Below are positions 4,191-63,752 of a stretch of DNA of 64,000 nucleotides, piece after piece. The notes beneath the pieces were generated by a model. It saw only the letters and a program-made list of their open reading frames with translations. It was not told the origin of the DNA and searched no databases. The position numbers and the translations under genes were made by a program. Every line of letters begins with the position of its first letter. Position 1 is the stretch's first letter. Origin of the DNA: a virus (Duplodnaviria; Heunggongvirae; Uroviricota; Caudoviricetes); the IMG/VR virus record IMGVR_UViG_2526164631_000023; one strand, written 5' to 3'.

Positions 4191-4993
4191 TGCTTGATTC
4201 AATAGGTGAAGTTAAAGCCTTCAAAATTCTGTCAGATGCCGGTATCTCTACACCAGAATCTATAACCATAAGCCGGGCAGCGTCTGTAAAAGCCTCATCA
4301 CTCGCCAGCGCCATACAGGGAATAGTTCACGCCGATAAAACCTATCCTGATTCTGTTTCGGCCTGGACTACTCAATTGCTTGGCTTTTCTGAACAGCTAA
4401 ATGAGGCCAGCAAAGCGTCTTCATTACTGGCTGATTCTCTTTCCCCATACACCAAGCCATCAGAGCTGTTACAGATGAAGATTGGCTGGGAATGCTACGT
4501 AAAAGGTAACGAGCTGACCCCCATACCTGCTTTCGCCCTTGTTGAGGGGATGGGGAATGTTTCCATTCCGCAATCTCTAACGGACGCATTGACGGCGCTA
4601 AAACTTGATGCTCTGAAAACCGCCATGAACGCCATTAACGCAAAAATAGAAGCTGCTGGAAGTGCTGGTGGTGATAGCAATGGTGGACAGGGTGGTGCTG
4701 GGGGCGCTCAGGCTCCAGTCATTACTCAGGATGAAATTGAAGCTTTACGGGAAGCAGTGACAGCCGCCGAAGTTTTACTCTCCGAAATTAACTCAGCAAG
4801 TGAGAGTGTCGTAGCCCTTACAGGTCGCATTAAAACGTCAACCACTCAGGCAACCAAAGGTTTAGAGAACGCTGTCGCCATCACGTTAACTGGTTCTCTA
4901 CTGGATGATGCAGTAATGAGTCCGGCAATCAGTTTAATCATGCCACAAGGCGTTATCGATGCGCTCCAAAAGAACACCAAAAAGGAACCATAG
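4190..4993 (+). CDS. Hypothetical protein with Gly-rich linker, translationally coupled to the PAAR gene
   Basis: ATG overlaps the PAAR stop (TAATG at 4188-4192); 267 aa; GSAGGDSNGGQGGAGGAQAP linker; the track start at 4091 is an upstream alternative. Confidence 0.45.
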   Translation: MLDSIGEVKAFKILSDAGISTPESITISRAASVKASSLASAIQGIVHADKTYPDSVSAWTTQLLGFSEQLNEASKASSLLADSLSPYTKPSELLQMKIGWECYVKGNELTPIPAFALVEGMGNVSIPQSLTDALTALKLDALKTAMNAINAKIEAAGSAGGDSNGGQGGAGGAQAPVITQDEIEALREAVTAAEVLLSEINSASESVVALTGRIKTSTTQATKGLENAVAITLTGSLLDDAVMSPAISLIMPQGVIDALQKNTKKEP

Positions 4994-5018
4994 CAACACC
5001 ACTTAGGAACACAAAAGG

Positions 5019-5522
5019 ATGCGAATTGGTACATGTTTAACACCAAAAATGAACCTGGAGAGGATGGTTTTGAAAAAGATAATTTTGATTGTAATTGCGC
5101 TTTTAGCCATTTCTGGAATTTACCGAACAACGACGGCAGTTATCGAACACATCAGGTATGTCCGATCGCTTGAAGACTCAAAATCACAACTGGAAAGCAC
5201 GAACAACACGCTTTCTACCGCATTACAGTTAAGTGAGAACGCTCGCTCAGCCATGCTGACCGAAAACGAAAGAATTAAAGCACTGGAAAAGGAGTACCAG
5301 CGCAAAACAGCAGAACTGAATGCCAACCTAATCAAACAACGAGAGGAAAGCCAGAATGAAATCACTCGCCTTGAAAATGCGTTGCGCCGTGCTGGGATTA
5401 ACGATGTGCGTGTGCCTGATGACGTTATCAGGATGCAGCGGGAACGGGCAAAAGCCATCAACCAGCGTGCCAGTGAAAATTACCGTAGAAGCCACCAGCA
5501 AGCCGCAGGCAAATCTGATTGA
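5019..5522 (+). CDS. i-spanin (Rz-like): N-terminal membrane anchor plus periplasmic coiled coil
   Basis: Hydrophobic KKIILIVIALLAISGIY followed by charged heptad-rich region; true start may be an internal ATG (5049 or 5064). Confidence 0.5.
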   Translation: MRIGTCLTPKMNLERMVLKKIILIVIALLAISGIYRTTTAVIEHIRYVRSLEDSKSQLESTNNTLSTALQLSENARSAMLTENERIKALEKEYQRKTAELNANLIKQREESQNEITRLENALRRAGINDVRVPDDVIRMQRERAKAINQRASENYRRSHQQAAGKSD

Positions 5523-5688
5523 TTACTCCCCTTGTTTAGTGCCAGAAGACACGCCAGTGCTGTTAAACAAGTATCCGACATACGCTGAACAGTTATTCAG
5601 CACGATCGACGAATGCAACCAACGAAACGCACTGAATAACCAAAGAAACAGGGAGATTTGGGAAGGGAAGGGGGATCAAGGCTCCTGA
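5356..5688 (+). CDS. o-spanin (Rz1-like) outer-membrane lipoprotein, out of frame within and beyond the i-spanin 3' end
   Basis: Signal peptide with lipobox LMTLSGC; SD gaggaaag 8 nt upstream of ATG; overlaps 5356-5522 of the i-spanin gene in another frame. Confidence 0.5.
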   Translation: MKSLALKMRCAVLGLTMCVCLMTLSGCSGNGQKPSTSVPVKITVEATSKPQANLIDYSPCLVPEDTPVLLNKYPTYAEQLFSTIDECNQRNALNNQRNREIWEGKGDQGS

Positions 5689-6134
5689 AGCCAGATGTCC
5701 TGGCTGTCAGCTTCTTCGAAACCGTGACAGACGTTAAAGTCACTCAAACGATACTGACGCTGACGGCCCCTATTTCGCTCATGCCAATGCATATATCCAC
5801 CAGCAAATGCCAGCGGACAATCGCTATAGTCTATGTAACCAATACCATTCCCCAAACGTGCTTCGCGCGCACCAGCTTTCCAGGACAGTAGAAAAGAGTC
5901 ACGATCCGCCAGCATAACAACAAAATCGTCCGGATCTCCGATACAGTGAAGAATACCTGCCTTACATAACTGCTTGAGCGCTTTTGACTGGCTCAGGATG
6001 TCTTCTCCGTAATACTGAAAACAATCATCAACAACAGCGGGATAGCCTGTCGGGGGATTCAGGCTGGTTGGTATAGCTGACGCGATCGCCAGCATTAAGC
6101 GATATTGTGTTTTTGATGGGTTGACGTGACTCAT
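5676..6134 (-). CDS. Hypothetical protein (152 aa, Cys/His-rich)
   Basis: ORF only; second gene of a leftward two-gene unit downstream of operator-like site at 6557. Confidence 0.3.
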   Translation of the reverse strand: MSHVNPSKTQYRLMLAIASAIPTSLNPPTGYPAVVDDCFQYYGEDILSQSKALKQLCKAGILHCIGDPDDFVVMLADRDSFLLSWKAGAREARLGNGIGYIDYSDCPLAFAGGYMHWHERNRGRQRQYRLSDFNVCHGFEEADSQDIWLQEP

Positions 6135-6150
6135 TTTGTCCCTTGTTTAC

Positions 6151-6543
6151 TCATTGTCGCCATGCATTTTTTAACTCAGGAATATCTGCCATTTCAATTA
6201 ACTTGCGAAGTCCAGCACTGACTTTCCCATTGCCAACCATAGCAAGCCAATCTCTTACAGCTTTCGGCATGTAGAGCGTTGCAGTTACCGGCTCTTCAAC
6301 CCTGGCAGGACATCCGCATACAGGCCATTTAATTGATTCCATAACTTCGGATGCCGGGGTGAGGGCGGGGACATTGAGTATATCTCTACCAGAAAACTGG
6401 ATAACGATCCGTTCAGCGAGCGAGAGTATCTCACTTTCGGCAAGAATTGATGCCAACTGCGCCTCAACAAGAAAGCGACTTGTTGTGTTCAGAGAGTGGC
6501 TCTTAGCGCCATTTTTATACGAAACAAAGATTCGATACGCCAT
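6151..6543 (-). CDS. Hypothetical protein (130 aa)
   Basis: ORF only; first gene of the leftward unit; operator-like motif just upstream of its start. Confidence 0.3.
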   Translation of the reverse strand: MAYRIFVSYKNGAKSHSLNTTSRFLVEAQLASILAESEILSLAERIVIQFSGRDILNVPALTPASEVMESIKWPVCGCPARVEEPVTATLYMPKAVRDWLAMVGNGKVSAGLRKLIEMADIPELKNAWRQ

Positions 6544-10592: not shown

Positions 10593-11327
10593 ATGAAAAA
10601 TTATACTGCTGATCCTTTTATGCGTGCGATTTTCGGTTCTGGCTGCTTTGAAAGCGGTGATAAATCCACGCAGGACAATAATGATAACGCCATGCTGGAA
10701 AGCGCAGGACAGAAAGGAAAGGACACTCAACCAAAGCCCAAAGACGACATTGAAACCGCGATGATGGAAGCGGTTGAATCCCGTGCACAAGGTGATATGC
10801 GCAGCCTGGCAGCTTCCATGCTTGCTGGTTGGGTTGAAGATGGTGATCCGGAGGCTGACTCATTTGATGCATTAGCAATCACTATGGCTGGCCTGGCTGA
10901 TATCGATGAAGACACCGATTTCACCGATGAGCAAATCGATGCTTATAATGATGCACTCGCAGCTCTTGCTGATGCAGCTGTTGCGCTTGGCGCTGATCAG
11001 GATGATGTAACCGAAATGATCGACGATGAAGATGACTCAGCTGCCGAACGTGTTTATGACGCTCTTTCCGAAAGCGACACCGACATGATGGAAACAGCTA
11101 TTGCCATTTACACCGTTGCTGGTGGTGATAGCGCAATGCTGGAAGCGGTACGTAAAAAAGTGGTTCGTGATGGCAAGGTAACCATCATCCGTAAACGCCC
11201 GCGTCCTCGCCGCATGACGTCATTGCAAAAACAGGCGCTGAAAAAAGCACGCCGCAAAGCACATACATCCGTAGCGAATATCAACCGCAAAAAATCAATG
11301 CGCATTCGCAAAAAACGCGGTTTGTAA
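10593..11327 (+). CDS. Strongly acidic protein with a basic C-terminal tail
   Basis: ATG at 10593 with SD ggagagagg; Asp/Glu-rich body and C-terminal RKRPRPRR..KKARRK..RKKSMRIRKKRGL; hairpin cccccgc/gcggggg just upstream. Confidence 0.35.
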   Translation: MKNYTADPFMRAIFGSGCFESGDKSTQDNNDNAMLESAGQKGKDTQPKPKDDIETAMMEAVESRAQGDMRSLAASMLAGWVEDGDPEADSFDALAITMAGLADIDEDTDFTDEQIDAYNDALAALADAAVALGADQDDVTEMIDDEDDSAAERVYDALSESDTDMMETAIAIYTVAGGDSAMLEAVRKKVVRDGKVTIIRKRPRPRRMTSLQKQALKKARRKAHTSVANINRKKSMRIRKKRGL

Positions 11328-12519: not shown

Positions 12520-13071
12520 ATGACACCAACCGAATTATTAGAAAGCGTTAAAGCACGATTTAATCCACTGCTTGTGCGTGAAGAAGAAACGCTGAAAGCC
12601 TTCCTGATCAAAGCTCTGACCACGTATCAGGACAGGGCAGGGGTAGTGAAAACGTTAAAACTTGAAAAAGCTGGTGGTACTGCAATCCCATTACCAGAAG
12701 ATTATCTCTCTCTGGTTCATGTTACCGACAACAATGGCCTGTTGGTCTATTCGGATGAATTATCCGGATTTATTGAATTAGAGCTAACAGGTTCAGAGCG
12801 CTGGCCTTTTCGAATGCTGTATCTGGTTAATCTACACGACAGAAAGCTGGATGAATGGCAAGTGCCTCCTGCAATCATTGGAATGCTGGAGGAATATCTA
12901 GAGGCGCTTATCAATGTAAGAAATGTCGCCCGGCAGCGTAGAGCGTCCATCGACGGGAAATTTGACTACTCCGATCTGCCCGATGAAGCCACGCTATATG
13001 CCCGCGTGCAGGAGATTGAGGAAAAAATGTCCTCAAACCGGGCCATTATTCCGGGGGCTACCATTTTTTAA
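12520..13071 (+). CDS. Hypothetical protein (183 aa)
   Basis: ORF only. Confidence 0.3.
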   Translation: MTPTELLESVKARFNPLLVREEETLKAFLIKALTTYQDRAGVVKTLKLEKAGGTAIPLPEDYLSLVHVTDNNGLLVYSDELSGFIELELTGSERWPFRMLYLVNLHDRKLDEWQVPPAIIGMLEEYLEALINVRNVARQRRASIDGKFDYSDLPDEATLYARVQEIEEKMSSNRAIIPGATIF

Positions 13072-16079: not shown

Positions 16080-19000
16080 ATGGATATCAGCCCGTTAGTG
16101 ACGTTGAACAATTGCCACAATGGCGAGCACTCCATATGTCAAAAGCCCTGGAAGAAAAATACAAAGCTCAAGCCGGGAAACGTTGTCGCCGCTGGTAAAA
16201 GAGAGGTTATTTTGAAAGAGAATAAAGACCGTATCGCAATAATTGACGCTATTCAGGGGGCGAGCACAAACGAACTTAAGGCTCTTGCTGAGATCAAAGA
16301 CGCCATTCTCTCTGGTAGAGGGTCTATAACTCAACTTGGTGAAAATCAAGGTAAAGTAAGTCAAAGACTATCCCGTAGACTCATAGCAAGCGAACCCTAT
16401 GTCTCTGGTGATGCCAAGAATACCCAACCTAACCCATATATAAAACGCCTTCCGATGAAAAAAGGGAGGAAGCAGGTCAACAACGGAGAAGAACGTCTCA
16501 TTGTTGCAACCAACACATCAGAGCGCGTTCATTTTGCGTCATCACTCCAGTCCGCCCAAAAGTTGAAAGGTTCTGTGCCAGTAGCCGCTAATTCTGCTCC
16601 TCTTGAACCACAATCCCCCCAAAGCCAAAAAGGACCGCTTCGGGATAGTAATGGACGCTTTGTATCCCAGAAAAACAACGAAGATATAGCCAGAAAAAAA
16701 GAATGGCAGAACGCACGTAAGGCCGACGCCAAACTACAAGAAGGCTTCCTCCGGAAATTAGGCTCCATTATAGGGGTAGATGGCAATCAGTCTTCCAGTG
16801 AAGAGTCTTTAACAGATGCCGCAGGTATCGGCGCTGGTGGTCCGTTGTGGATAGCTGCTCGCGGCATGTACGACATTACTAAAGAGATCACAGGTAAAGC
16901 AGAATCTCTTAAAGAATGGATAGAAAAGGGGAAAGGTGAGGCTTCATCTTCGAAAGCGACATCACCAGCTATCACTTATCCGGCGGTGGTGAATACTCAA
17001 AAAGCAACCTCTGCAACAGCATTTAATAATGCTGTTGAGACAAAATCAGCACAAGCAGTAGAAGAGCAAACAAAAATTCTTCAGACCAATGACAACAAAA
17101 TAATTGATGGTCTGGAAAATGTCTCCGACGAAGTAGTTAAGCTACGCAAATCAGTATCTTCTGGAAATAAGTTCGGCTTAAGTGATCTCTGGAGAAATCG
17201 AGCAAGCAGAAGAAATAAAATCAATATTGGCGATCAGGCTGGTAAAAATAAACGGAACAAACCGAAAAGGAAAGGTCGCAATCTGGGGAAAAAAGCCCTT
17301 TCTGTTGGTGAAAAAGCCGCTGCCGGAAGCGCTGCTGCTGGAGCTGGTGCCGGAGCTGCAAAGACTGTTAAAACAAAGGTTAGTAAAGCCAAAGACATCA
17401 GCACCACAAGCGACGCATCTAAGGGTATTGCTAAAGAAACAAAAAACACAGCAAAGGCAGTTAAGCCAGCAGGTGTTGTTGCCGAAGAGGCCACAATTAA
17501 AACAGGTGAAACTGTTGCAAAGAAAAAAACCGAATCCGTAGCCCTCAAAAGTGCTGCAAAAATAGGTGTTAAATCAGCGGCTTCTACAGCTGCAAGAGCT
17601 ATCCCGATCATCGGATCGCTGGCTATGGCGGGATATGACGCTATAGATGGTTACACTGATACAGATGCGCAAAAGGCAGCCTTTGGATTAAGTGACGATG
17701 ATGCTGTATCCGAACAGCAAAAAACGGCTTACGCAACAGCTAATGTGCTCGATATGGGGGGCTTGGTGTCGGGCACAACGAACTTGATAGGGAAAGGAAT
17801 TTCTGCGCTAGGATTTGAAAGAGCAGGTGAAAAACTTCAGAATTTTGATACCGGAGATATTGCTCGTGGTGTTAACGGCGCGGTAGATATCAACAAATCT
17901 GTTTTTGGTAGCCTTAAGGATACATTTTTATCCACTGACGAAAACACGAAACAAGTAAAAAAAGCTGTTGAAGACGGCACCAAAAAAACTGTCGATGCGA
18001 TTCATTCTCTTGGTGAACAATTACAAGGTGGGCGTAATGGCGAGGATGGAGTTGGTGAGCACGGGTATACTTCTCCAACTGAATTTAGTGCACCTGCCAA
18101 CAACACCATTGCAGCGGATCTGAATATTGGCGGCAGCAACGCTAAAAACCGCAATTACCGAAATAATAATCTCGGCAATCTTGTTTTTGCCAACCAGGAA
18201 GGGGCGACGCTGGAATCGCCAAATGTAAAAGGTGAACAACGTTTTGCGCGATTTAACACACCTGAAGAAGGGATCAGGGCACTGGCAAACCAGGTTTCCA
18301 GCTATTACAACGGCACCAGTGCCGCAGCGGGATATCAGAAGTTACAGACGGTATCCAGCATCATTTCAAAATGGGCACCGCCAAATGAGAACAATACTAA
18401 CCAATATATTGATAACGTCAGTAAATATCTTGGTGTATCGCCTAATGAAAAAATAGATGTCAGCAAACCAGAGGTTATGACGCAATTAGTTCGTGCAATT
18501 GCGACGAAAGAAGGCGGAAATCCGGCAGTTAATAATGAGTTCATTAAGAACGCACTTGGAGCATTTAACACAAACACTGGTCGATGGGAGGGACAATTCT
18601 CTGACGAAACATTGGCGCGGATTAATAAAATTCAGAAAGAAAATGGTGGTCAGCTAATTGCCCGCGATTCGCAATATAGTGTTGGTCGCAAGGTAAAATA
18701 TGCTAATGGAAAATCTCCAGCTCAACCAGTTTTGAATGCCGTTCCGACAGCAACACAACAGCCAATTGAGGTTGCACAACATGCCCAGGCAGTCAAAAAG
18801 CCACAAAAAACAGGTAACCAACCACAACCGATTAATCCAGAGAACGCTGATGTTAATACCGGCTCTCCATCGAGTTTGCTTGAGCGGTTAATCGCAATAA
18901 ATGAAAGCGGAATCAGTGGTGCAAGTAATTTATTTGGCGGCGCGGCTACCAGCCTTGCTGGAACAAGTCTGGACCTGGTAAAGGATTTTGCGTTAGCTAC

Positions 19001-19949: not shown

Positions 19950-19954
19950 TACTG

Positions 19955-20329
19955 ATGCTTTACGAAATAGACGCAAGACTTCAAACGAATGAGAGCGGTG
20001 TCATTATTGCAGAAGGAAGTACCGCAGCATGGATGGCCCGACTTGAGGAGTGGCTACGAACCCCTGAAGGGAGTGTTTATGGTTTACCCTCTTGGGGGAG
20101 TCCAATGGAAGAATTTAAGCATGAACCATTCGGCTCTGAAACTTCGCACATAGTTGAAGTGGCTATTGAAGGGAGAATGATGAAAAAACTACGACAAGAC
20201 TTGCCAGGTTTGGATGTGCAGGGGATTCGTTGCACATCAATTTCTGAAGATTCTTTATTAATTAGTTTTTATGCGAAAGGTGGGAGCATGGATATTGTTA
20301 TGCAGAAATCAAGTGGGGTGGGCGCGTGA
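19955..20329 (+). CDS. Small baseplate protein (gpW/gp25-like size)
   Basis: 124 aa, SD gagga; overlaps next gene by 4 bp. Confidence 0.3.
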   Translation: MLYEIDARLQTNESGVIIAEGSTAAWMARLEEWLRTPEGSVYGLPSWGSPMEEFKHEPFGSETSHIVEVAIEGRMMKKLRQDLPGLDVQGIRCTSISEDSLLISFYAKGGSMDIVMQKSSGVGA

Positions 20330-21756: not shown

Positions 21757-21766
21757 TGAGGTTAGC

Positions 21767-48400: not shown

Positions 48401-49365
48401 GTCGTTCGCTTAATAAAGTCACTTCTGAAGATATTCTTAGCTTGTTCCGCAAACCGTCCGGAGAAGGTCTGGAATCATTCTGGAGGACCGTGCTGGCATA
48501 CCGTTTATTCCAGGGCAGGATGAAAGCCTTTAGCAATATCGATGATATTGAACGGATGTTTAATCAGGTCAAGATCGCGAAAATTAAGGCGAAGATCGAA
48601 AAAACACGTTCTGCGCTGGTGGCCTGGCGCGATGCATTGTTTGAGCAATATAAATCACTCAGTGATGCAGATGGATGGGCGGCATTGGAACAGCTGGCGA
48701 ATAATGGGGTAGATGGAGCGAAACTCGCCATTGTTCAGGCTGATAACCCCCTGGAATCACCGGCAGCACAGTGGATTAAGGTGGGGGCTGTCATCAATGC
48801 ATTTGATGAAAAACACATTAGTAAGGACGATTTTGCTGATGCTGTTTCTGTTAATCGCCTGGTAGAAATGGCTACCCGCCGCGCCCGTGAGTTGAAAGAC
48901 GGCGACTATGTGAATGAGTTGCCGGATACGCTCAAATCGGCAACGTGGCAGGACTATGTATCGCTGAAAAACGGCGGGGCCACTGAATCAGAGATCGCGG
49001 AAAGGCTTGAGCAGGCTGAAAGCAAAAGAGAAGAGCAGGCGGCAGTGGCTGAAGCCAGAGCTGATGAAGCGGCGAATGATGACTATATCATTGTGGTTAA
49101 TGATAAGCCGATTCGCGCTAAGGCGCGTGTTCGCGGGCGCTGGTGGAGCGTCAGCGAGGACGTTGGCGCGGTTTATCTCATTGCCGACCAACCAGGTTCC
49201 TCGACAATACGGAACGCCAAAGACGCGATTAAGAAGATTGGCGGGCGTTTCTGGAATTTTGAAGCAAACCCGGTTGCTGATGTGAACTTTGACCGTCCTG
49301 CATGGATGGTATCTACGCGTTACTCGGTAGATGAACTGCGTAAAATAATCGCCGATGCGGCCTAA
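42454..49365 (+). CDS. darB: DarB-like giant antirestriction protein: N6-adenine methyltransferase plus SF2 helicase (2303 aa)
   Basis: MTase motifs VLEPSAGTGIF and VGNVPFGE; helicase GFGTGLGKTT and DEGHNYRN; size close to P1 DarB as remembered; start uncertain. Confidence 0.75.
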   Translation: MKITFSIPSQPYRIAEFLRFRGGNPLDKLLHSISEASSLGELIEIVSRLHKLRAVATFGVRKADGVSIQKTRRAANNAAVNLLNSLPPGFDGAKLTDEQRQILAGYTGEGGLTDGEGSQYEYYTPQFMAEGIWDLFAGYGIDGGHVLEPSAGTGIFQETKRQGMIMTSAELSPISGRINQLLHPEDDVNIGAFEALAAKDAMYDHAVGNVPFGEGRSGVAGLDPAYANEKNVGNYFVLRTIDKVKPGGLIVLVVPNGMTDGAKYKKLRDKVSRKAEFLGAHRMPSGTFSESGTDTVVDVWVLRKHPEAFLEMIPDTDDSTLKSANVLWDTFLKGKWFTTEGKRFVYGDMERTSFRNTLVVKKDGRVSNESMKTALSRRFDSRINWDLLGVTTQAWQGAKVGDKRLVGGIWHEFDGLKWVKDTTTKSSALDVSRYGVSTFGDLQIAFQSTNGILALSWDQISAIASDYPSVVSDEVAAMIRFAGKQREKDRERVMRGALIGQLINKALDLRNLGVNVDDKLADASRLAAAEVAKYGPPHAIKLNGLAEAGAKNWMTFTGNVKQDGSTSDLLAGRLDVTDGAAGIDFTRPEQVIAHLFSDVALNPITLGDFREAFAGELPEDDDAALEYLAKFDDIAIDGYGCLLPMDRATSGDVATKTALLMGWRDASTGEQKANFERQLAKIEEKRIFTPLNKVTVNLNARWLDRRLIKEFLAEQGYDEFKYTEPDLKVVDGILVSPDDYEGKDGVFTGYQLRTVNGKNGNEFKKANNKDGFLNQLENYLNGVKPRGQNANEYLDKIAQLEVSFNDWLRTHPQADQIAREYNDAFNGFIPFTHSDAPLGLEGLSGKRIPLTYQNEEVRRLSEDGRGIMGFGTGLGKTTTALALEAYNFETGRTKRTCIVVPKAVYQNWYHEAQSFYSADAFANMMFIGLDEVRDDSGNILTAPVLDENGEPRLDSNGQPLTRNVVKESASAVIVQRMNMIPSSNWRTVIMTKEQFASIPLREKTIEENSQQAVFNAVEMGRLDLASGKHRDAQKKNKIKDQAANTGTTKKQNIPYFEDMNFDSVIADEGHNYRNSFNAGREAGQLAYLPNPAVSKMARDMAVKAAYMMKRNNGRGVVMLTATPLVNSPIDAFNMLSTVIPQEEWMRMGIVTPDDFVRVFGKTATVQVQKISGEVEEKQGLVGFQNLDGLRGIFHRWTTLKTAADVGATVKIPDIIENTLQIPMTGEQEAAYEELRKRAQELSRNDELTVDENGHITNDKPDDFIFSIIRDMDKVAIDPDLYASAITFQFPVELADKVKAIADALPKVAGGKVADDADEAEEDGAGGLVSTRTSKVVKTTFSEHPAHVEIRASIELEAEILKAIAAAGIDLQQVSHPIPPKYAALIENLREGLKNGKQIVFIDEKAQHQKLRRIIASALQMPEQEIGIINATTVSQAGGIKLKKVNKPTEPTPNKNGEYKEGAWETYYSKLAQYEDYLSAKNDAGLEGMEGIAADYNEGRTRIIICNKKAEVGINLHIGTTDIHHLTLPWTPASIDQRNGRGARVGSPQEKVNVHYYCGKGTFDDFRLDTLKRKKDWIKMVMTSDMSEIANGDADDADERAIMLAANPEERRAIMARQAQEREERLKLKAQREANNALDIYLKAANAAGKDIGMMETELKSAMEQIEYYQRNLDDLIKAGTNRNGQKYALEQLSSYRKRARVLRFAITRAKDADTIMKRSRGDVERAIKSGVLDISIDVIQNPQEYMRTDKNILLHKGSYYRAVIDDRETTAIVRVEKIDGEKAQYLCRIAWLDRASRYARAPGSIITLPFDSVIEAVTFEEGVAESRATAARGVQCHQLSTILTRDQFYDAIRNGVMNVIAGKPGNAWGGGSAIKYWAYRTDDGQIALSSAYDGVIGQKIGRASDIAPERWIYPDGNDEALKREVAKIQASDNPLNIVDGEGFLQALYGYDYIQGMQAWGAQATMDDVAQEFENWMAGRGLSGRSLNKVTSEDILSLFRKPSGEGLESFWRTVLAYRLFQGRMKAFSNIDDIERMFNQVKIAKIKAKIEKTRSALVAWRDALFEQYKSLSDADGWAALEQLANNGVDGAKLAIVQADNPLESPAAQWIKVGAVINAFDEKHISKDDFADAVSVNRLVEMATRRARELKDGDYVNELPDTLKSATWQDYVSLKNGGATESEIAERLEQAESKREEQAAVAEARADEAANDDYIIVVNDKPIRAKARVRGRWWSVSEDVGAVYLIADQPGSSTIRNAKDAIKKIGGRFWNFEANPVADVNFDRPAWMVSTRYSVDELRKIIADAA

Positions 49366-51339: not shown

Positions 51340-52563
51340 GTGACGGGAACAGCAATGAGTCAACACACTGATACTTCTAATCTGGAAATTATCTCGACAG
51401 CAATTGAAACGCTGCGCACACAAATCGCTCTTATACAGAAACGGAATCCGGGTGATGACCTGTCAAAGCGACTGCACGAGAGTGTCATTGCCACTACAGA
51501 TAACCTGGTGGCGGAAATCAACAAGCTGCTTGATGATGGGGCAGTTGATTACAATAAGCTGGTGGATCAGTTTGAGGAATACCAACAAGCAGTTAATGAT
51601 GGCTTGATCCGTTTTTCACAAGTCACAGGCGTATCAGCGACAGTTGAAAGCCTGGGTGATGCAGTTAATCAATTTGCCGCGAATATGCGTAATGAGATCG
51701 GCAATCTGGAAGCGCGTCTTGAACAGGCAAATACACTGCGTAAATCTGCCGAAGCCGATTTGAACCGTTACAAAAAAGACTATCCGCCAAGCCTGACAAA
51801 GCGGCTGGATGTTGCGGAGAAGGATAACCGCACGCTGAAAAGAGAGCGCCGGGAACTAAAAGAGCGTTTAACCAAGCTCAATCAGCAATGCATTGATTAT
51901 CAAGGCGAAGGCGTCACACTGCGTAAAAAGTTGGCTACAGCGCAGAGCATTATCGAAACATTAAAGCGAGAGTGCTCACAGCTTGGTCACGATCTGAACC
52001 GTGCTTGTGGCATGGGACAAAGACCAGAGACATTTCCACTTATGTATGATGGAAGGGATGCCATTGCCTACATCCATGAGTATCCGCACGGCCTGGTTGC
52101 GGAAACTGGGCAGCGTGGCGAAGCACTGCTGACGGCTAATTACCATCAACAAATCAGAACCAATCGCCTGTTAACGATGGATGTGATCCCATCGGTATGG
52201 GGAACGCCGCTTTACTATCGCCTGCCGGGCTTCGAAAAGGACTGGAATACCGACATAGACGAATGTCTCGCAGATAAAATTATGGCGTACCTGGAGACGG
52301 ATTTTCCGCGCTTATATCGCCGGATTATGGACTCTAAGGATGCGCCAATCGATGAATTAAAAATGCGTCCGGAGACGCTGGAGGCAATCAAGCAGACGGA
52401 GTTTGATACTGTATTCAGTGTGGCCTGCATTCCAAGCTGTTTCCATGAAAGCATCCCGTTCATGCAAGGAGATCGTCGTCAGGAAATCATTGACGCTTGC
52501 CGGGTATGGGCGAACGAATGGGATAAGAAGAATGGGGGTGTAGAAGATCTTTATGGGAAATAA
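51340..52563 (+). CDS. Hypothetical protein, N-terminal coiled coil plus C-terminal globular domain (407 aa)
   Basis: GTG start; alternative ATG at 51355. Confidence 0.3.
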   Translation: MTGTAMSQHTDTSNLEIISTAIETLRTQIALIQKRNPGDDLSKRLHESVIATTDNLVAEINKLLDDGAVDYNKLVDQFEEYQQAVNDGLIRFSQVTGVSATVESLGDAVNQFAANMRNEIGNLEARLEQANTLRKSAEADLNRYKKDYPPSLTKRLDVAEKDNRTLKRERRELKERLTKLNQQCIDYQGEGVTLRKKLATAQSIIETLKRECSQLGHDLNRACGMGQRPETFPLMYDGRDAIAYIHEYPHGLVAETGQRGEALLTANYHQQIRTNRLLTMDVIPSVWGTPLYYRLPGFEKDWNTDIDECLADKIMAYLETDFPRLYRRIMDSKDAPIDELKMRPETLEAIKQTEFDTVFSVACIPSCFHESIPFMQGDRRQEIIDACRVWANEWDKKNGGVEDLYGK

Positions 52564-52582: not shown

Positions 52583-52720
52583 CACAATTCGAATGTATTG
52601 ATTGTGAAGATAACTTAACATAGAATTTTCCTTGCTGGTGGGCGGTACCCACGTTTCGCTTGCTGGGCTTGATAGTCACTTATTGGTTATTGTTCGCCCA
52701 CCAGCATTTAACAAATTAAA

Positions 52721-54879: not shown

Positions 54880-55008
54880 ATGGATTTTTGGGCGTTTGCC
54901 GATAAAAACCCGGAGTGGACATTATTGTTTCTGCTGGTGGTTGCATACGGGGTAGAGCAAGCGGCAAAAGCCTTACGCGGTTCTGGCAAAAAGCGTAAGC
55001 GTAATTAA
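54880..55008 (+). CDS. Candidate small hydrophobic peptide (42 aa) between tRNA-Ser and tRNA-Ile
   Basis: SD aaggtgg 9 nt upstream of ATG; MDFWAFADKNPEWTLLFLLVVAYGVEQAAKALRGSGKKRKRN. Confidence 0.25.
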   Translation: MDFWAFADKNPEWTLLFLLVVAYGVEQAAKALRGSGKKRKRN

Positions 55009-56121: not shown

Positions 56122-56513
56122 TGTACGGGACTACCAAATTAAGCACTCAACAGGCCACCAATATGGAGTGGTCTATCGCTAACTGTAAGATCGTGTCATG
56201 CAATGCCACGCGTACTGATGTGGGCCATAAAAGCACTATAACAGGCTATCTAGTAATGACCACCAGGGGGATGAGGGTTAGATTTCGCTGGAAAGCAGAG
56301 CAAGTAACGCCATTCAGAGAGCCATCAATGCCGCTGCAGGTTGAGCAGGATTATCTATGTTTACCAGAAATAGATGGAGGAATGCTGGTGGAGTCTGATG
56401 GTAGTAAGGCTGATTTTGAAGCCAATTTGAAGCTGGCACAGGCCGTAATCAATAGTTATCGCGGACAGTGGATCGCAAAAGTGAAACATGTTGTTCGTTT
56501 GTCTCGCTGGTAG
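56121..56513 (+). CDS. Hypothetical protein (130 aa)
   Basis: ATG overlaps previous stop. Confidence 0.3.
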   Translation: MYGTTKLSTQQATNMEWSIANCKIVSCNATRTDVGHKSTITGYLVMTTRGMRVRFRWKAEQVTPFREPSMPLQVEQDYLCLPEIDGGMLVESDGSKADFEANLKLAQAVINSYRGQWIAKVKHVVRLSRW

Positions 56514-56620: not shown

Positions 56621-57013
56621 ATGGAACAAATCAGCAGCGCAGAAATTGCGGATATCATGATCAGGGCTGACTGCTATCTGACAGTCACTGAAATTACCAC
56701 TCTCGCCAAAGAAAAATACCCTCATCTCCATGTTTCACGAGTAAGTGTAACTAACATCATTCGTCATTTTGTTCGTTCAAGCAGGGCAATCTGTGAGCTT
56801 GATGATCGTGTTTACCCACGAAAATACTGGTTGCATGGCCTGAACGGATATCAGTTCAAGGTGCGTGGGCGAACCCCTGAATACGGCAGTTTACTGGTTA
56901 AAAACTGTAGCAGGAAATCAGTCGAACAGGCGCGAAAAGAGCAACGAGAGCTGGTGGACATGGCGAATAAGCTGTGGAATGCCGCCGTTAAAAAGCGTGG
57001 TGTTGCTTTATGA
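56621..57013 (+). CDS. Hypothetical protein (130 aa), possibly DNA-binding
   Basis: ORF upstream of and overlapping (ATGA) pacA start; degenerate operator-like sequence at 56511-56550. Confidence 0.3.
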   Translation: MEQISSAEIADIMIRADCYLTVTEITTLAKEKYPHLHVSRVSVTNIIRHFVRSSRAICELDDRVYPRKYWLHGLNGYQFKVRGRTPEYGSLLVKNCSRKSVEQARKEQRELVDMANKLWNAAVKKRGVAL

Positions 57014-58374
57014 GTCTGGTTAATTGGGAGGAGCACCGCGCCCGCTTTATAGCGTTGCGTGAAGAAAAAGGGATCACTGTAAAGGAATACTGTGAGGAGC
57101 ATGGCCTTAGCTTCAATACAGCCAGAAAGCATCTCAATATGAAAAAAAATGAGGTGCGGTCGCAGGTAAAGACAACAAAAAAAAGCACCAAATCACCTGA
57201 AAAAAAACGGGCAGGAAGAGCAACAAAAAAGCAGGAAGAGGGTGCAGAAAAAACAAAATTTACAGAAATTGACAATTCGCAGGGCGCAGGTTCTTTCCGA
57301 AGTATGCCGAGAAAGAAAACTTCGGATCATGAAAATAATTTAAATAATAACAATGAGATAAAAGAATCCGTCAGGAGATCATTGCGCGAAAAAATGGCGA
57401 AAATGATCCCCGAAGAAGATAAAAGTGCCCCAAAAATTGAGGGATCTTCTGCAATGATCCCTGACGGTGCTGTGCAGCGTGCCACATTGCCAACTACGAA
57501 TGTGGCTCGCGATATGATGAAGAACGGCGCAGAAGAACACCTGCGGTTAGCAATTCAAATGGCGCAAGAGCGCGCACTTCAGTATCAAAGCATTGTTGAT
57601 CAGGAGGCCGAACGTCTACAGGCGGAAATAGACACCTTGGGCGATAAAGAGCCAGAAGGAATGCACCCTGGGCAGCGCCTTCTCGGTCTAATCAGTGACG
57701 CGGCCTACTACATGAATGATTTTATCAGTAGGTTGGCAGCTATATATCAGTCCGAACAAAAGCTGCGACAGGGGGATGAAAAGCTTCGTCAGAGCGCTCG
57801 CCAGCAAGCATTCAAAGAGGCTGAGGCCAGAGAAAAACTCGAATTAGCACGCCTACAGGCCGAACAGCGTGGCAAAGAGATTGAATATCGCATTGGCGCT
57901 GACGCACGCGCAGCCAGAGTTATCGCCGCCGCTATACGTATGCGTGAGCGCGAGGAACTGGATGATATCGGTGTTGCTGAATACATCGAGCGCCAGGGTG
58001 TCAGCGTCCCGGCTATCCTCGCGGCGCGCGCGGCGAAAGCTATCACTCTTCTCGAACCACCTGTTTCTGACGTCAATGATGTTGATGATGAACAGCTGGA
58101 CAAAGAGGCAAGGGAGTTTGCAACGCTTCAGGCTAACCATCCGCTATGGCTGGCAGAGCGCCGGGCGGATGTGGCAACCATTGTTGAAGAATTGGGTTGC
58201 GGAGATTACGACCGCAATGGCGAGCGTAAAGCTGGAGAATTCGAGGCCAACGACGAAGAGCTGGATATTGACCCTTCGGCAACGGCTGAAATTTACGGTG
58301 ATTATGATGCATCTGATGCAGGGTATGACGCCGGAGATGATGATATCGCGATAGAACCGCCGGAGGATGATTAA
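57010..58374 (+). CDS. pacA: Terminase small subunit, PacA-like (454 aa)
   Basis: Directly upstream of and overlapping the large terminase gene; N-terminal HTH-like region, acidic C-terminus; contains a GATC cluster. Confidence 0.5.
   Translation: MSLVNWEEHRARFIALREEKGITVKEYCEEHGLSFNTARKHLNMKKNEVRSQVKTTKKSTKSPEKKRAGRATKKQEEGAEKTKFTEIDNSQGAGSFRSMPRKKTSDHENNLNNNNEIKESVRRSLREKMAKMIPEEDKSAPKIEGSSAMIPDGAVQRATLPTTNVARDMMKNGAEEHLRLAIQMAQERALQYQSIVDQEAERLQAEIDTLGDKEPEGMHPGQRLLGLISDAAYYMNDFISRLAAIYQSEQKLRQGDEKLRQSARQQAFKEAEAREKLELARLQAEQRGKEIEYRIGADARAARVIAAAIRMREREELDDIGVAEYIERQGVSVPAILAARAAKAITLLEPPVSDVNDVDDEQLDKEAREFATLQANHPLWLAERRADVATIVEELGCGDYDRNGERKAGEFEANDEELDIDPSATAEIYGDYDASDAGYDAGDDDIAIEPPEDD
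57320..57605. other. Candidate pac site: cluster of six GATC-containing repeats inside pacA
   Basis: GGATCATG, AGATCATT, TGATCCCC, GGATCTTC, TGATCCCT, TGATCAGG within ~280 bp. Confidence 0.3.
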
Positions 58375-59882
58375 TGGCTGGCGGGCGCAAGGTTAAATGC
58401 GTCACCAGAGATCCACGCTGGCGCGATATGGTAATCAAATACCGCTACAACTTTACCCAGGCTGTTGTCGATATTTTTGGGATGTTCCCCTCCCACCAGC
58501 AGCAGCAGATCATTCAGTCCGTACAGGAAACGGGGAGTAGGACTACCGTCACGTCCGGACACGGAACGGGGAAGTCGTCCCTTACCGCGATGTTGCTGTT
58601 GATTTTTATGATCCTGTTCCCCGATGCCCGTGTCATCATTGTTGCTAACAAGATAGGCCAGGTAAAAACAGGCGTATTCAAATACGTTAAACAGTATTGG
58701 GCGAATGCAGTTAAGCGTCATGGGTGGTTGCAGACCTATTTTGTCCTCTCTGACACCATGTTTTATGAGCGCTCCCGTAAGGGGATTTGGGAAGTTCTCT
58801 GCAAAGGTTATCGACTCGGCAACGAAGAAGCGCTGGCGGGGGAACACGCGGCACATTTGCTTCTAATTCTGGATGAAGCATCTGGTATATCTGATAAGGC
58901 GATCGGCGTAATGACCGGTGCTCTTACTGAAGAAGATAACCGGATGTTGATGCTATCCCAGCCAACAAGGCCAAGTGGTTATTTCTACGATTCGCACCAT
59001 TCTCGAGCAAAAACCCCAGGCAACCCGAAAGGGATCTGGACAGCAATTGTTCTTAACTCGGAAGAATCACCGTTCGTCACACCACAATTCATCAAGGAGA
59101 AGCTTCTGGAATATGGCGGGCGCGATTCTATTGAGTACATGGTCAAGGTGCTTGGTCAGTTCCCACGAGAAATTAACGGCTATTTGCTTGGTCGTGATGA
59201 ATGCGATCGCGCTGCTCGCCGCAAGGTGTTGTTGGAGAAAAACTGGGGATGGGTGGCAACGGCTGACGTTGGTAATGGGCGAGATAAGTCGGTCCTCAAC
59301 ATCTGCAAGGTATCAGGTCACAGGGATAAGCGGCGCGTTGTTAACTTTAAGGTAATGGAGATGCCTGGCACTATGGACCCATTGGCCTTTGCTGACTTCA
59401 TATATAACGAATGTACGCCGGAAAAATACCCGAATATAACAATCGCGGTTGATGCTGATGGTTTTGGTTCTGATACGTGTGCGCAGTTGGTGCGTCGTGG
59501 TGCGAACCCGGTACGTATTCGGTGGGGAAAACCCATGTTTGCGAACAAAGACAGGGAGCGATTTGTTAATCAGCGTGCCTACGCAAATATTATGGCGCGT
59601 GATGCCATAAAGTCAGGGCGTATGCGGATAGACAGTGACCCTAAAACGGCAGAGCAAGCGTCAAAAATCCCCTTTTTACTGAATGAAGAGGGGAAAATGG
59701 CGATGATGCGCAAAGAGCACATGCGGCAAAAGCTAAACATCAAATCGCCTGACCGATGGGATACCTACTGCTTCACTATGCTGGTGGACTATGTGCCTGC
59801 TAATGAAGATATTGGTGCCGAAATGGCAACTTTCCGAGATCAGGTTCTGGCGGATATCGAAATGCCGGATCTGGATATATAA
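58374..59882 (+). CDS. pacB: Terminase large subunit, PacB-like (502 aa)
   Basis: Walker A TSGHGTGKSS, Walker B LLILDEASGI, C-terminal nuclease region with acidic residues (AVDADGFG). Confidence 0.8.
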   Translation: MAGGRKVKCVTRDPRWRDMVIKYRYNFTQAVVDIFGMFPSHQQQQIIQSVQETGSRTTVTSGHGTGKSSLTAMLLLIFMILFPDARVIIVANKIGQVKTGVFKYVKQYWANAVKRHGWLQTYFVLSDTMFYERSRKGIWEVLCKGYRLGNEEALAGEHAAHLLLILDEASGISDKAIGVMTGALTEEDNRMLMLSQPTRPSGYFYDSHHSRAKTPGNPKGIWTAIVLNSEESPFVTPQFIKEKLLEYGGRDSIEYMVKVLGQFPREINGYLLGRDECDRAARRKVLLEKNWGWVATADVGNGRDKSVLNICKVSGHRDKRRVVNFKVMEMPGTMDPLAFADFIYNECTPEKYPNITIAVDADGFGSDTCAQLVRRGANPVRIRWGKPMFANKDRERFVNQRAYANIMARDAIKSGRMRIDSDPKTAEQASKIPFLLNEEGKMAMMRKEHMRQKLNIKSPDRWDTYCFTMLVDYVPANEDIGAEMATFRDQVLADIEMPDLDI

Positions 59883-59910: not shown

Positions 59911-60948
59911 TTACCAGAGCTTTGCGGCGTGCTGCGTTTGGGGGAATGTGTATCCGTAACGTTCTTCGATTGCTTTGCCGTATTTTTTACGCGCTTCATT
60001 CAGTTTGATGCCGGTCAGGTCGTCTCCAGAGGCCATCATTACGTCTAACAATTCCAGATCCATTTTATCCAGCCTTGCCATTGCTTCACGCGATGTACGA
60101 ATCTTACGTTCAATGATATGGCGAATGGCCGGATCGGCATCCTCCAGCATCTTAGCGGATTTCTGCTTAAGGTTTTCGTTGCGAATATCGATGTTCCTTA
60201 AGATGTACGACTTCGCAACGTAGCTTGGCTGGTGTTTTTCCAGGTCACGAACACGATATAAGTTAAAATCGCCGAGAAGGCTGCAAGGTACCGATTCGAC
60301 GCCAGAATAAATTGTAATGCTCCGGCGTTCACCAACATTATTGACAACGGGGATCGTTGTCTTCGGTAGTCTTGCGAAAACCAATGCGCCATGTGCGCCA
60401 ACTCTAAAGCGAGAAAGGGCATTGCTGCCTTCGATGTTTGTTGTCAGCACAACATCTGTATATGCCTCTTTACGCGCCCGGTAGATCTCGCCTTCAGGCT
60501 CAGCTTCAAAGAAGCGCTGTTCTTCTTCAAGAGCACCTACGATTTGAGAAAAAACCCTATTTTTCAGGCTTTTCTTTATGATTTTGTCGTATTTTTTGAG
60601 CAATTGCTCACGTGTAAATGTACGTGTTGTTGTAGCGCTTTGCACAACAACATGCGTGCTTTGATTGGTGTCCTCAATGATGAATGGGATCGGAGAATAT
60701 ACAGACTCAACAATGTTCGACGCTTTGCCGTCGGCATCGCGACACATGTCAACGAAGGCTTTCCATTCAGCAAGACATTTTTCAGCTTCTTCTAATATGT
60801 TTTGGTCATGCGTTAATGCAACATGGCGGAATTCCTCGCCAGCATAACTGGTATCATGGAAAACAGAGTTTGCGACCACCAGCTCTTTCCACCGTTCAGC
60901 GGTTTGCAGGAACCGTTTGTACTCTTTCTCGATCGACTTCTTACTCAT
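59911..60948 (-). CDS. Protein at the P1 c1 position (345 aa): candidate master repressor
   Basis: Divergent from the recombinase across the rox region; operator-like motif overlaps its upstream region; no sequence-level confirmation. Confidence 0.3.
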   Translation of the reverse strand: MSKKSIEKEYKRFLQTAERWKELVVANSVFHDTSYAGEEFRHVALTHDQNILEEAEKCLAEWKAFVDMCRDADGKASNIVESVYSPIPFIIEDTNQSTHVVVQSATTTRTFTREQLLKKYDKIIKKSLKNRVFSQIVGALEEEQRFFEAEPEGEIYRARKEAYTDVVLTTNIEGSNALSRFRVGAHGALVFARLPKTTIPVVNNVGERRSITIYSGVESVPCSLLGDFNLYRVRDLEKHQPSYVAKSYILRNIDIRNENLKQKSAKMLEDADPAIRHIIERKIRTSREAMARLDKMDLELLDVMMASGDDLTGIKLNEARKKYGKAIEERYGYTFPQTQHAAKLW

Positions 60949-61157: not shown

Positions 61158-61189
61158 TAACTTTAAATAATTGGCATTATTTAAAGTTA
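61158..61189. other. rox-type recombination site (Cre/lox-like 14-4-14 palindrome)
   Basis: TAACTTTAAATAAT TGGC ATTATTTAAAGTTA: perfect 14-bp inverted arms around 4-bp spacer; reverse complement of the rox sequence as remembered. Confidence 0.8.
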
Positions 61190-62370: not shown

Positions 62371-62371
62371 A

Positions 62372-62389
62372 TTAAATTTCTAACACATC
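62372..62389 (-). promoter_or_regulatory. Operator-like motif copy i (reverse: GATGTGTTAGAAATTTAA)
   Basis: Immediately downstream of recombinase stop. Confidence 0.4.
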
Positions 62390-62431
62390 TTTTTAGATTG
62401 ATATCTTTGCTGTAAAGTACCCTCGCCTATT

Positions 62432-62788
62432 TTGGAGGGTGCTTTGCAGAGTCAAATCACGGAATCAAGACGCTTCACGGTGGATGGTTACACCGTAACC
62501 TTCGCCGCTGGTGTTAAGAACAGTCATGCTGTCGTTGTATTCGGCATCATGACCGGGCTTGAGGCCGTCACTGTGTTTACCCTCGAAAAAAACTGGCGAA
62601 ATCTGGAGGAAGCAGAAAGCTACGTCCGGAAAGTAACCATCATTGCCGCCGAAAAACTCCTGGCCCACTATCAGGAAAATTATCGCACTATGGTCGAGAA
62701 GATTAATCTCGCTTTCACTCGCCCCACTACCGGCTTTATTGCACCGGATACTAATGCAGGTCGCTATCCTGCAAGGGGGCGTCGGTGA
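62432..62788 (+). CDS. Hypothetical protein (118 aa)
   Basis: ORF only. Confidence 0.3.
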   Translation: MEGALQSQITESRRFTVDGYTVTFAAGVKNSHAVVVFGIMTGLEAVTVFTLEKNWRNLEEAESYVRKVTIIAAEKLLAHYQENYRTMVEKINLAFTRPTTGFIAPDTNAGRYPARGRR

Positions 62789-63261
62789 AAACTTATTACA
62801 CATCTCTGAATTGTTACCCGTCTTCCTATCCAGAATTGTCCGGGAAGCTGTTAGCTCTATTAGCTAAAGCACCTACGGAATGGTTTAAGCCAGTCATTAT
62901 CAATCCACACTTCCTGGATTACGGATCTGTTCGCACTCGTAACGAACTCAAAAACCTACTGGCGCATGGATTCATTCGACACCGTGCCGGGAAAGGCTAT
63001 CAGTTAGCGATTGCGCCAGAAGAGGCCGTGCGGCTATTCGCATATCGTGACAGCCAGACAAAAGCTCGGGTAATAGCTCAAATACTTCATAACGGCAGCA
63101 CCTATGCCCGCCAGTTTGGCGGCGATACGTCGCAGTTCTTGCGGGCGGTGCGATCGCTGGAGGAGCAAGGGGTTATTGAAAGTTCCTGTCTTCCTGTTCC
63201 TACCGTTCCACATATCAAACGTCGGGTTTACACCTTCACGCAGAGAGCTAAAAAACAATGA
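62785..63261 (+). CDS. Hypothetical protein (158 aa)
   Basis: ORF only. Confidence 0.3.
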   Translation: MKTYYTSLNCYPSSYPELSGKLLALLAKAPTEWFKPVIINPHFLDYGSVRTRNELKNLLAHGFIRHRAGKGYQLAIAPEEAVRLFAYRDSQTKARVIAQILHNGSTYARQFGGDTSQFLRAVRSLEEQGVIESSCLPVPTVPHIKRRVYTFTQRAKKQ

Positions 63262-63752
63262 TTTACGTAAAAGTGAAACGCCTACATCCGGCAGCAAAAC
63301 TTCCAGCTTATGCCACCTCCGGATCGGCGGCGATGGATTTTGAGGCTGTTGAAATAAAACCATGCGTCGATAGCAATGGTGCAATTTCCTCAAGCTGGTG
63401 GGTGTATACCGGACTGGCTATGGAGATCCCGCCCGGCTGGTGTCTGAAACTCTATCCGCGATCCGGATTGGGCTGCAAAAAACATACTCGCCTGGCTAAC
63501 TGCGTAGGAATTATCGACTCCGATTATCGCGGCGAAATCATGGCAAAACTGATTACTGATCCCGGCGGGGAAGGCGTTTGTCTCAAGCCTGGAATGGCTG
63601 TCATGCAAGGAATTTTTGAGCGTGTTGAACAAGTCTCACTAGTCGAGGTTGAGGAACTCAACGAAACGGAACGTGGTGCTGGTGGCTTTGGTAGCACATC
63701 GGAAGGCCACTTTGAAATTAAGCGTTCACCGCTTCAGTACGAAAAGTTATAA
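63258..63752 (+). CDS. dut: dUTP diphosphatase (trimeric dUTPase)
   Basis: Motifs AMDFEAV, PRSGLG, GIIDSDYRGE, RGAGGFGSTS. Confidence 0.8.
   Translation: MIYVKVKRLHPAAKLPAYATSGSAAMDFEAVEIKPCVDSNGAISSSWWVYTGLAMEIPPGWCLKLYPRSGLGCKKHTRLANCVGIIDSDYRGEIMAKLITDPGGEGVCLKPGMAVMQGIFERVEQVSLVEVEELNETERGAGGFGSTSEGHFEIKRSPLQYEKL

Follow-up and report, generated by a model that had tools for sequence, protein, structure and literature searches.

Introduction

Recognition of the Chi octamer by the RecBCD enzyme of E. coli is established (PMC5041463). Chi enrichment was described in the phages P1, P7, D6 and NGUA22 (Subramaniam and Smith, bioRxiv 10.1101/2021.07.08.451572; Adv Genet 2022; restated in PMC12315714), with sites on both strands, a higher density near the packaging start, and RecA/RecBCD-dependent circularisation of headful DNA as the proposed role (10.1101/2021.07.08.451572). 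The excess, its distribution and its explanation are therefore already known for these phages. P1 needs both RecA and RecBCD, its yield being about 20-fold lower without them, a dependence reported for P1 only (PMC12315714; 10.1101/2021.07.08.451572), and according to the literature the P1 concatemer comprises about four genome copies. LLS-class lambdoid phages are also rich in Chi, have no Rec module and grow better with RecBCD (PMC12315714); their sites lie beside the packaging site and are oriented for RecBCD entering from that end (PMC12315714).

A 64,000-nt stretch of viral DNA, analysed over its whole length and called the window below, showed the same phenomenon in the same lineage. It is a plasmid-borne D6-type variant, 95–98% identical to D6, and differs in nothing essential from the published P1-group phages. 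What is added to the published work are null models that preserve codons, the occupancy of permissive sites (32–60%; host, 20%; pac-distal arc, 11%), the finding that Chi positions in P1 and the D6 type are mostly non-homologous, and a plus-strand bias upstream of pac.

Identity of the phage-plasmid

The window was aligned to D6 with 95.3–97.6% nucleotide identity over 87–90% of the query, and the synteny of D6 was retained, including pacA-pacB-c1-rox-dre. The E. coli plasmid NZ_CP066033.1 is at least 99.97% identical to the window over most of the plasmid. The host of this near-identical record is E. coli, and that of D6 is E. coli C600. As judged from these alignments, the window is a D6-type (P1-related) plasmid prophage of E. 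coli. Phage P1 itself (Punavirus P1) was considered and rejected, as only patches amounting to 3–7% of the query matched it, at 88–92% identity; the proteins of the window share about 47% mean identity with their P1 orthologues.

A sequence-only reading of this DNA had taken Chi richness as support for assignment to the P1 family. Gene content and synteny place the window in the P1 supergroup, so that this much of the assignment stands, with P1 itself excluded. Chi richness lends it no support and is not diagnostic of the group, because Chi is abundant also in LLS-class lambdoid phages and in the E. coli chromosome. That P1 is rich in Chi was correct (50 sites counted, in agreement with PMC12315714), and the D6 count (53 sites) also agrees with the published one.

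Chi sites in the window

An exact scan of both strands for the enterobacterial Chi sequence (5'-GCTGGTGG-3') gave 30 matches, 20 on the plus and 10 on the minus strand, where about 1.7 were expected (about 18-fold). All sites listed are exact matches.

1989..1996, +, Chi octamer (GCTGGTGG)
2784..2791, -, Chi octamer
3919..3926, -, Chi octamer
4664..4671, +, Chi octamer
5492..5499, -, Chi octamer
5797..5804, -, Chi octamer
11118..11125, +, Chi octamer in gene 21-like tail gene
12670..12677, +, Chi octamer in pmgC-like gene
16833..16840, +, Chi octamer in sit-like gene, the last ahead of the Chi-poor stretch
30894..30901, -, Chi octamer in cin, whose P1 counterpart (98% identity) has Chi at the same position
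38540..38547, +, Chi octamer in pro-like gene, position common to P1
41009..41016, +, Chi octamer
41219..41226, +, Chi octamer
44396..44403, -, Chi octamer in darB-like gene, antisense, position common to P1
45990..45997, +, Chi octamer in darB-like gene, position common to P1
46423..46430, +, Chi octamer in darB-like gene; D6 has no Chi here and reads GCTGGCGG
47961..47968, -, Chi octamer in darB-like gene, antisense
48615..48622, +, Chi octamer in darB-like gene
49139..49146, +, Chi octamer in darB-like gene
51558..51565, +, Chi octamer in pmgS-like gene
52634..52641, +, Chi octamer
52698..52705, -, Chi octamer
54933..54940, +, Chi octamer
56384..56391, +, Chi octamer
56950..56957, +, Chi octamer in lpa-like gene
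58493..58500, -, Chi octamer in pacB, antisense
59780..59787, +, Chi octamer in pacB
60876..60883, -, Chi octamer in c1, sense
63394..63401, +, Chi octamer
63678..63685, +, Chi octamer; D6 has no Chi here and reads GATGGTGG

The sequence-only reading had tallied 13 of these sites, which was too low, and had opened its range at 4664, when the earliest lies at 1989. Its ten plus-strand coordinates were all exact; among its three minus-strand coordinates 3919 was exact, and those given as 52697 and 58490 were corrected to 52698 and 58493. The plus-strand sites beyond its list start at 1989, 41009, 41219, 45990, 48615, 51558, 56384, 56950, 59780 and 63394.

The flanks of the 30 sites are unrelated, so that the sites are independent occurrences and an origin as copies of a repeat family was ruled out. 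Purines at +4 to +7 on the 3' side are known to raise Chi activity (PMC5041463); such a favourable flank modulates activity and is not part of the definition of Chi. These purines were not enriched at the 30 sites (63/120, equal to base composition).

Chi excess and codon choice

The strong over-representation that had been claimed for Chi held under composition-corrected models, namely Markov models of order 5 or lower and shuffles that preserve codons. Dinucleotide shuffles of the window contained 1.66 sites on average and at most 6, against the 30 observed. For the plus strand, 0.84 (order 0), 3.7 (order 3) and 7.0 (order 5) sites were expected by Markov models and 20 were observed; for the minus strand the corresponding expectations were 0.71, 1.65 and 2.87, with 10 observed. 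At order 3 the Poisson probabilities were 3e-9 (plus strand) and 9e-6 (minus strand); at order 5 they rose to 4.5e-5 and 8e-4, respectively. Only the order-6 model took up the excess (15.7 sites expected on the plus and 6.2 on the minus strand), because it is fed by the heptamers of Chi itself; for the same reason it is invalid as a refutation of the excess.

Shuffles that kept each protein and the codon usage of each gene yielded a mean of 8.3 sites and a maximum of 13, and Chi ranked first among all octamers under a synonymous-codon null. Its 24 one-mismatch neighbours were enriched just 1.5-fold (97 against 64 expected). Codon contexts that permit Chi were filled in 27 of 84 cases (32%), where 5.55 (6.6%) were expected from codon usage (P = 5e-11); the corresponding occupancy in E. 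coli K-12 is 20%. The excess thus arises through the choice of synonymous codons and is specific to the exact octamer.

Of 27 sites within genes, 21 lie on the coding strand, 11 of them in the CTG|GTG frame. There were 21 sense sites where 3.45 were expected, and 6 antisense sites where the expectation was 1.85 (P = 0.012); since both are enriched, codon pairs alone are insufficient and selection acted at the level of the DNA. The sense/antisense ratio was not above that predicted by the codon-preserving shuffles (P = 0.12). The suspected bias in Chi orientation proved not to be an independent feature, as the 20:10 split is not significant by itself (P = 0.10) and parallels the surplus of plus-strand genes, and once gene strand was controlled for, the D6 type showed no remaining strand preference.

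Distribution around the packaging start

The following features were used to describe the distribution of the sites.

16841..38539, no strand assigned, Chi-poor, pac-distal stretch of 21.7 kb with a single Chi, which carries the late structural, tail-fibre and dar genes
57010..59882, +, pacA and pacB terminase genes, which set the packaging direction (rightward in the window)
57325..57456, +, candidate pac (packaging start), inferred from where GATC is most densely clustered in the window
61158..61189, +, rox, the counterpart of lox in D6 (identical to the rox annotated in AY753669)

The candidate pac comprises 5 GATC in about 130 bp, 314–445 nt from the start of pacA, which corresponds to the relative location of pac in P1. 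The pac of D6 is annotated in no record, and the position used here is that of the GATC cluster.

Chi was most frequent around the packaging start and scarce across the circle from it, the pattern of the P1 group. The segment that spans the packaging start (38.5–64 kb) had a density of 0.78/kb, and in the Chi-poor stretch the single site equals the chance level (0.86 expected). Mean densities were 0.47/kb in the window, 0.53–0.58/kb in whole phage genomes and about 0.22–0.24/kb in E. coli. The E. coli chromosome resembles the window in having the same octamer, read by the same RecBCD, over-represented and mainly on the coding strand; it differs in that its sites are almost uniformly spread with a leading-strand skew, whereas those of the window range from dense near pac to chance level far from it.

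In the D6-type plasmid (Fisher P = 1e-4) as in P1 (P = 6e-6), 41–60% of the permissive contexts in the pac-flanking arcs were occupied, and 11–13% of those in the pac-distal arc. Compared with the host, where 20% of such contexts are filled, occupancy in the pac-flanking arcs was higher (47%, P = 6e-6). The late-gene block, Chi-poor in both P1 and D6, is inverted between them and is pac-distal in each; because the Chi-poor arc is the same block in both, pac position and gene-block identity are not fully separable. Tail genes 26 to 5 and darB lie in different pac-proximal arcs in P1 and D6 and are Chi-rich in both. Between 38.5 and 57.3 kb, an arc of roughly 19 kb that leads up to the candidate pac, 12 plus-strand and 3 minus-strand sites were found; the arc upstream of pac in P1 has 13 and 5, respectively, and 4 of its plus-strand sites are antisense to their genes.

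Orthologous segments contain 15 sites in the window and 19 in P1, at equal densities, with only 4 positions in common. Individual sites of the window were retained in D6 no more often than random octamers (26 of 30, background 83%, P = 0.39), a comparison of low power and uninformative at about 4% divergence.

Discussion

We consider it probable that the octamers are true Chi sites, selected for circularisation of the injected, terminally redundant, headful-packaged DNA by host RecBCD and RecA. That D6-type phages depend on RecBCD, and that circularisation is the step served, we infer or take from the literature. Headful packaging would start at pac inside pacA, so that the virion DNA would be linear and terminally redundant and would need circularising after injection. 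For DNA of the first headful, rox would offer an alternative, site-specific route; later headfuls would need homologous recombination, because only the first has rox in both repeats. The ends of the injected DNA would be entered by host RecBCD, which a correctly oriented Chi would switch from degradation to the loading of RecA, and recombination between the terminal repeats would follow. About four successive headfuls are predicted to end downstream of pac, where Chi is dense in both orientations, and RecBCD would thus soon encounter an active Chi. In the 20 ORFs that have no orthologue in P1, no recognisable match to recombinase, exonuclease or RecBCD-inhibitor families was found; many small ORFs carry no assigned function. 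The only recombination-related proteins in the D6 annotation are Ref-like and RdgC-like. LLS phages are cos phages with 20 of 23 sites on one strand, whereas the D6 type and P1 package by headful and carry Chi on both strands (20:10 in the window, 33:20 in D6), as would be expected with ends on both sides.

The excess might instead be a by-product of coding and of amelioration to E. coli, with no selection on Chi itself, since Chi holds the frequent codons CTG, GTG, GCT and GGT and an E. coli-adapted phage would inherit host-like oligonucleotide usage. The predominance of coding-strand sites (21/27, 11 in the CTG|GTG frame), the sense/antisense ratio within the shuffle prediction, the strand split that tracks gene direction and the mild enrichment of the one-mismatch neighbours all accord with such an origin. 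It is already largely refuted, and we regard it as very improbable: preserving the codons leaves 8.3 sites (13 at most) where 30 are found, permissive contexts are filled at 32% instead of 6.6%, antisense Chi is enriched as well, and the enrichment differs between regions of a genome whose genes all share one host. Measured alike, the phage also exceeds the host in density (0.47–0.58/kb against 0.24/kb) and in pac-flanking occupancy (47% against 20%), and P1 relatives use CTG about half as often as E. coli (10.1101/2021.07.08.451572). A link to replication, with Chi enriched on the leading strand from the plasmid origin as an aid to the repair of collapsed forks, is the least credible reading and was rejected after control for gene strand, which abolished the strand preference of the D6 type. 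Rightward of the RepB-type origin, which lies at about 14–15 kb in the window, 16 plus-strand and 6 minus-strand sites were counted and the GC skew is positive, but the other replichore has no opposite bias (18 plus and 15 minus in the 0–45 kb arc of the whole circle), the origin itself sits within the Chi-poor arc, and a skew does not account for Chi being more than twice as dense as in the host.

Another reading is that the arrays protect concatemers or plasmid copies from RecBCD instead of aiding circularisation, the enzyme gaining entry where the pac cut leaves an unpackaged end, at the tails of rolling circles, or where the low-copy plasmid prophage is broken. The same logic has been proposed for LLS-class lambdoid phages, which have a like arrangement adjoining cos, and for Chi-protected rolling-circle plasmids. 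The plus-strand sites that prevail at 38.5–57.3 kb (12 against 3) have the orientation met by RecBCD travelling upstream from the pac cut, the upstream arc of P1 is similar (13 and 5) with 4 plus-strand sites antisense to genes, and no virion ends fall in this arc under the published headful model (10.1101/2021.07.08.451572). Given that about 90% of the genes in this arc are on the plus strand, the upstream orientation bias of the D6 type is not significant (P = 0.12–0.37), and general protection of the plasmid predicts an even density round the circle, where the observed density is uneven. As a replacement for circularisation we think protection unlikely, and it overlaps with that explanation more than it excludes it.

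Circularisation by RecBCD and RecA, our preferred explanation, does not by itself explain the mostly plus-strand Chi in the ~20 kb upstream of pac, where headful ends are not expected. We suggest tentatively that this array (38.5–57.3 kb) may have a second role, outside the published circularisation model: RecBCD entering the unpackaged end of the pac cut would be stopped there, and the remaining concatemer would be protected or recombined during lytic growth. The protective role proposed for Chi in LLS-type cos phages is analogous. If this were true, P1-group phages would have two functionally distinct Chi fields, one on each side of pac.

Chi in this phage-plasmid is a clear case of selection on a short DNA motif through synonymous codons, with Chi present at about half of the positions close to the packaging start where it could be encoded. 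The findings support the view that some phages use the RecBCD of their host rather than inhibit it. The findings also bear on the recoding or engineering of P1- and D6-type vectors, because the loss of Chi near pac may lower infectivity.

Identity of the window

The window was 95-98% identical to phage D6 across about 90% of its length. Its identity to the E. coli plasmid NZ_CP066033.1 (the D6-type plasmid; positions 78556 to 12594, reverse complement) was 99.97% or higher. Unlike the plasmid, the window carried no IS100 in its darA-like gene (about 34008-34012), and its Cin-invertible tail-fibre segment (about 24.4-30.5 kb) was in the opposite orientation. Matches to P1 and P7 were confined to short patches, which fell in the tail-fibre gene (its constant part), in cin and in the tRNA region, and orthologous proteins of the window and P1 had a mean identity of 47%. 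The gene layout pacA-pacB-c1-rox-dre was found. The window thus belongs to a relative of the D6 type and not to P1 itself, and the interpretation given in the sequence-only reading was supported in part; Chi richness, which it had cited for the family assignment, is not diagnostic of the family. Two features were located as follows.

57325-57456: densest GATC (Dam site) cluster of the window, inside pacA; candidate pac (packaging start)
61158-61189: rox, exact match

Chi number and composition controls

An exact search for Chi (GCTGGTGG, the octamer recognised by RecBCD) returned 30 copies, 20 on the + strand and 10 on the - strand, with mutually unrelated flanks; dinucleotide-preserving shuffles of the window averaged 1.66 copies and never exceeded 6. 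The over-representation put forward by the sequence-only reading was thus confirmed, also under the composition-corrected models described below. Its ten + strand coordinates were all right and one of its three - strand coordinates was exact, the other two being shifted by 1 and 3 bases; its tally was too low, with seventeen sites overlooked (the first site lies at 1989).

On the + strand (20 observed), Markov models predicted 0.84 copies at order 0, increasing to 7.0 at order 5; on the - strand (10 observed) the predictions increased from 0.71 to 2.87. P was ≤ 8e-4 at each of orders 3 to 5. The order-6 model nearly reached the observed counts (15.7 and 6.2, respectively), only because the heptamers of Chi itself feed it. 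Synonymous codons were shuffled within each gene, preserving all proteins and per-gene codon usage (300 runs), and this yielded a mean of 8.3 Chi (sd 2.1, maximum 13) vs the 30 observed. Under the same null, Chi ranked first among all octamers and its 24 one-mismatch neighbours were enriched only 1.5-fold; genes held 21 sense copies (3.45 expected) and 6 antisense copies (1.85 expected, P = 0.012). The encoded proteins permit Chi at 84 positions, and 27 of these (32%) carried it, vs 6.6% predicted from per-gene codon usage (P = 5e-11). The enrichment persisted in these tests, and therefore did not vanish on correction for composition.

Strand orientation

The 20:10 split between strands was not significant by itself (P = 0.10) and is accounted for by the direction of the genes: 17 sense and 4 antisense copies lay in the 48 kb of + strand genes, and 4 sense and 2 antisense copies in the 11 kb of - strand genes. 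The sense:antisense ratio in the window was not above that predicted by the codon-preserving shuffles (P = 0.12). The antisense enrichment argues for selection on DNA and not on codon pairs.

Position relative to pac

Chi spacing was very uneven, with 0.78 sites/kb at 38.5 to 64 kb; between 16.8 and 38.5 kb, a span of 21.7 kb, Chi occurred once. The relative position of the candidate pac corresponds to that of pac in P1; its hexamers (GGATCA, AGATCA, TGATCC, GGATCT, TGATCC) are similar to the TGATCA/G repeats of P1 pac without matching them. This cluster probably represents the D6-type pac, for which the records examined carry no annotation. Chi sites of the D6-type plasmid, D6 and P1 were mapped around the entire circle, starting at pac and following the packaging direction. 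In all three, Chi was dense in both orientations over the first 30-45 kb downstream of pac, dense and mainly + in the ~20 kb upstream, and sparse in the pac-distal arc. Occupancy of permissive sites was used as a measure independent of composition.

Occupancy of Chi-permissive positions by distance from pac
Circle; downstream; upstream; far; Fisher P for near against far arcs
D6-type plasmid; 50%; 41%; 11%; 1e-4
P1; 60%; 41%; 11%; 6e-6

The difference between near and far arcs was still significant when the arcs were set as fixed fractions of the circle. In 150 kb of E. coli K-12, occupancy was 20% (Chi at 0.24/kb); the pac-flanking arcs exceeded this host value (47%, P = 6e-6), and the far arc was indistinguishable from it.

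Turnover of Chi sites

Orthologous segments contained 15 Chi in the window and 19 in P1, only 4 of which had position, frame and orientation in common, one of them in cin (98% identical). Density was ~0.5 sites/kb in both lineages, and so is kept up while single sites turn over. Between the window and D6, 26 of the 30 sites were conserved, no better than a random-octamer background.

Other features of the window

1 to about 860, - strand: glnS (glutaminyl-tRNA synthetase), entered by the window start; NZ_CP066033.1 77697-79358
39355-40317: repL (lytic replication initiator), in two ORFs
53799-55093, + strand: tRNA cluster, Arg-TCT, Tyr-GTA, Thr-TGT, Ser-TGA and Met-CAT
GCCCGGCG, e.g. at 3093, 24000, 28306, 36672, 38330, 38975, 39601, 42667, 43110, 49664, 55891, 58159 and 61962
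TGGTGATG, e.g. at 113, 259, 8204, 47189, 47223 and 47613

glnS is carried by the phage-plasmid and is annotated in D6 too; temperate phages do not usually carry such a gene. The split in repL comes from one T missing from a homopolymer run (39810-39815; T6 in the window vs T7 in NZ_CP066033.1 and D6), which is either a true loss of lytic replication, the prophage then being defective, or a sequencing error. The D6 record has three tRNAs in the region corresponding to the cluster of five (Ser, Thr and Asn), and the tRNA set therefore differs between close relatives.

Of GCCCGGCG there were 13 copies, 6 on the + strand and 7 on the - strand, whose coding contexts were unrelated (~1.9 expected from codon-preserving shuffles), and of the related GCCGGGCG there were 11 (2.2 expected). 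Full D6 had 10 and 14 copies (2.6 and 2.2 expected), and P1 had 12 copies of GCCCGGCG (4.2 expected); no explanation was found for these excesses. TGGTGATG had 18 dispersed sites, mostly on the coding strand (4.2 expected); it overlaps the Chi core TGGTG, and its excess may reflect closeness to Chi or the codon context.

Relation to published work and proposed role

P1 growth requires RecA and RecBCD, yield falling ~20-fold without them, and P1 has 50 Chi sites clustered by the genome ends (PMC12315714; bioRxiv 10.1101/2021.07.08.451572); P1 packages about four headfuls, rightward from pac. For P1, P7, D6 and NGUA22, Subramaniam and Smith (bioRxiv 10.1101/2021.07.08.451572) described Chi densities 2-3x that of E. 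coli, probably selected for circularisation, and an inverted pac orientation in D6; a 2025 Genome Research paper restates the enrichment for P1 and relatives (PMC12315714). Given this explicit statement, the phenomenon is already known in P1-related phages. The additions made here are quantitative: codon-preserving nulls, occupancy measured against that of the host, and the comparison showing that Chi sites are mostly non-homologous between lineages.

The published headful-end argument leaves the + biased array upstream of pac unexplained. Four of these + sites in P1 are antisense to their own genes; in the D6 type the bias was inseparable from gene direction. The array resembles the arrangement of Chi in LLS-type phages (lambdoid cos phages without a Rec module and with high Chi density; PMC12315714).

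No recombinase, exonuclease or RecBCD inhibitor was found among the 20 ORFs without P1 orthologues, and the recombination-associated proteins annotated in D6 are Ref-like and RdgC-like only. Host RecBCD and RecA would circularise the terminally redundant, headful-packaged DNA, and Chi would be selected at places where DNA ends occur. Reliance on host RecBCD/RecA for circularisation, with its functional steps taken from the literature, is the best-supported reading.
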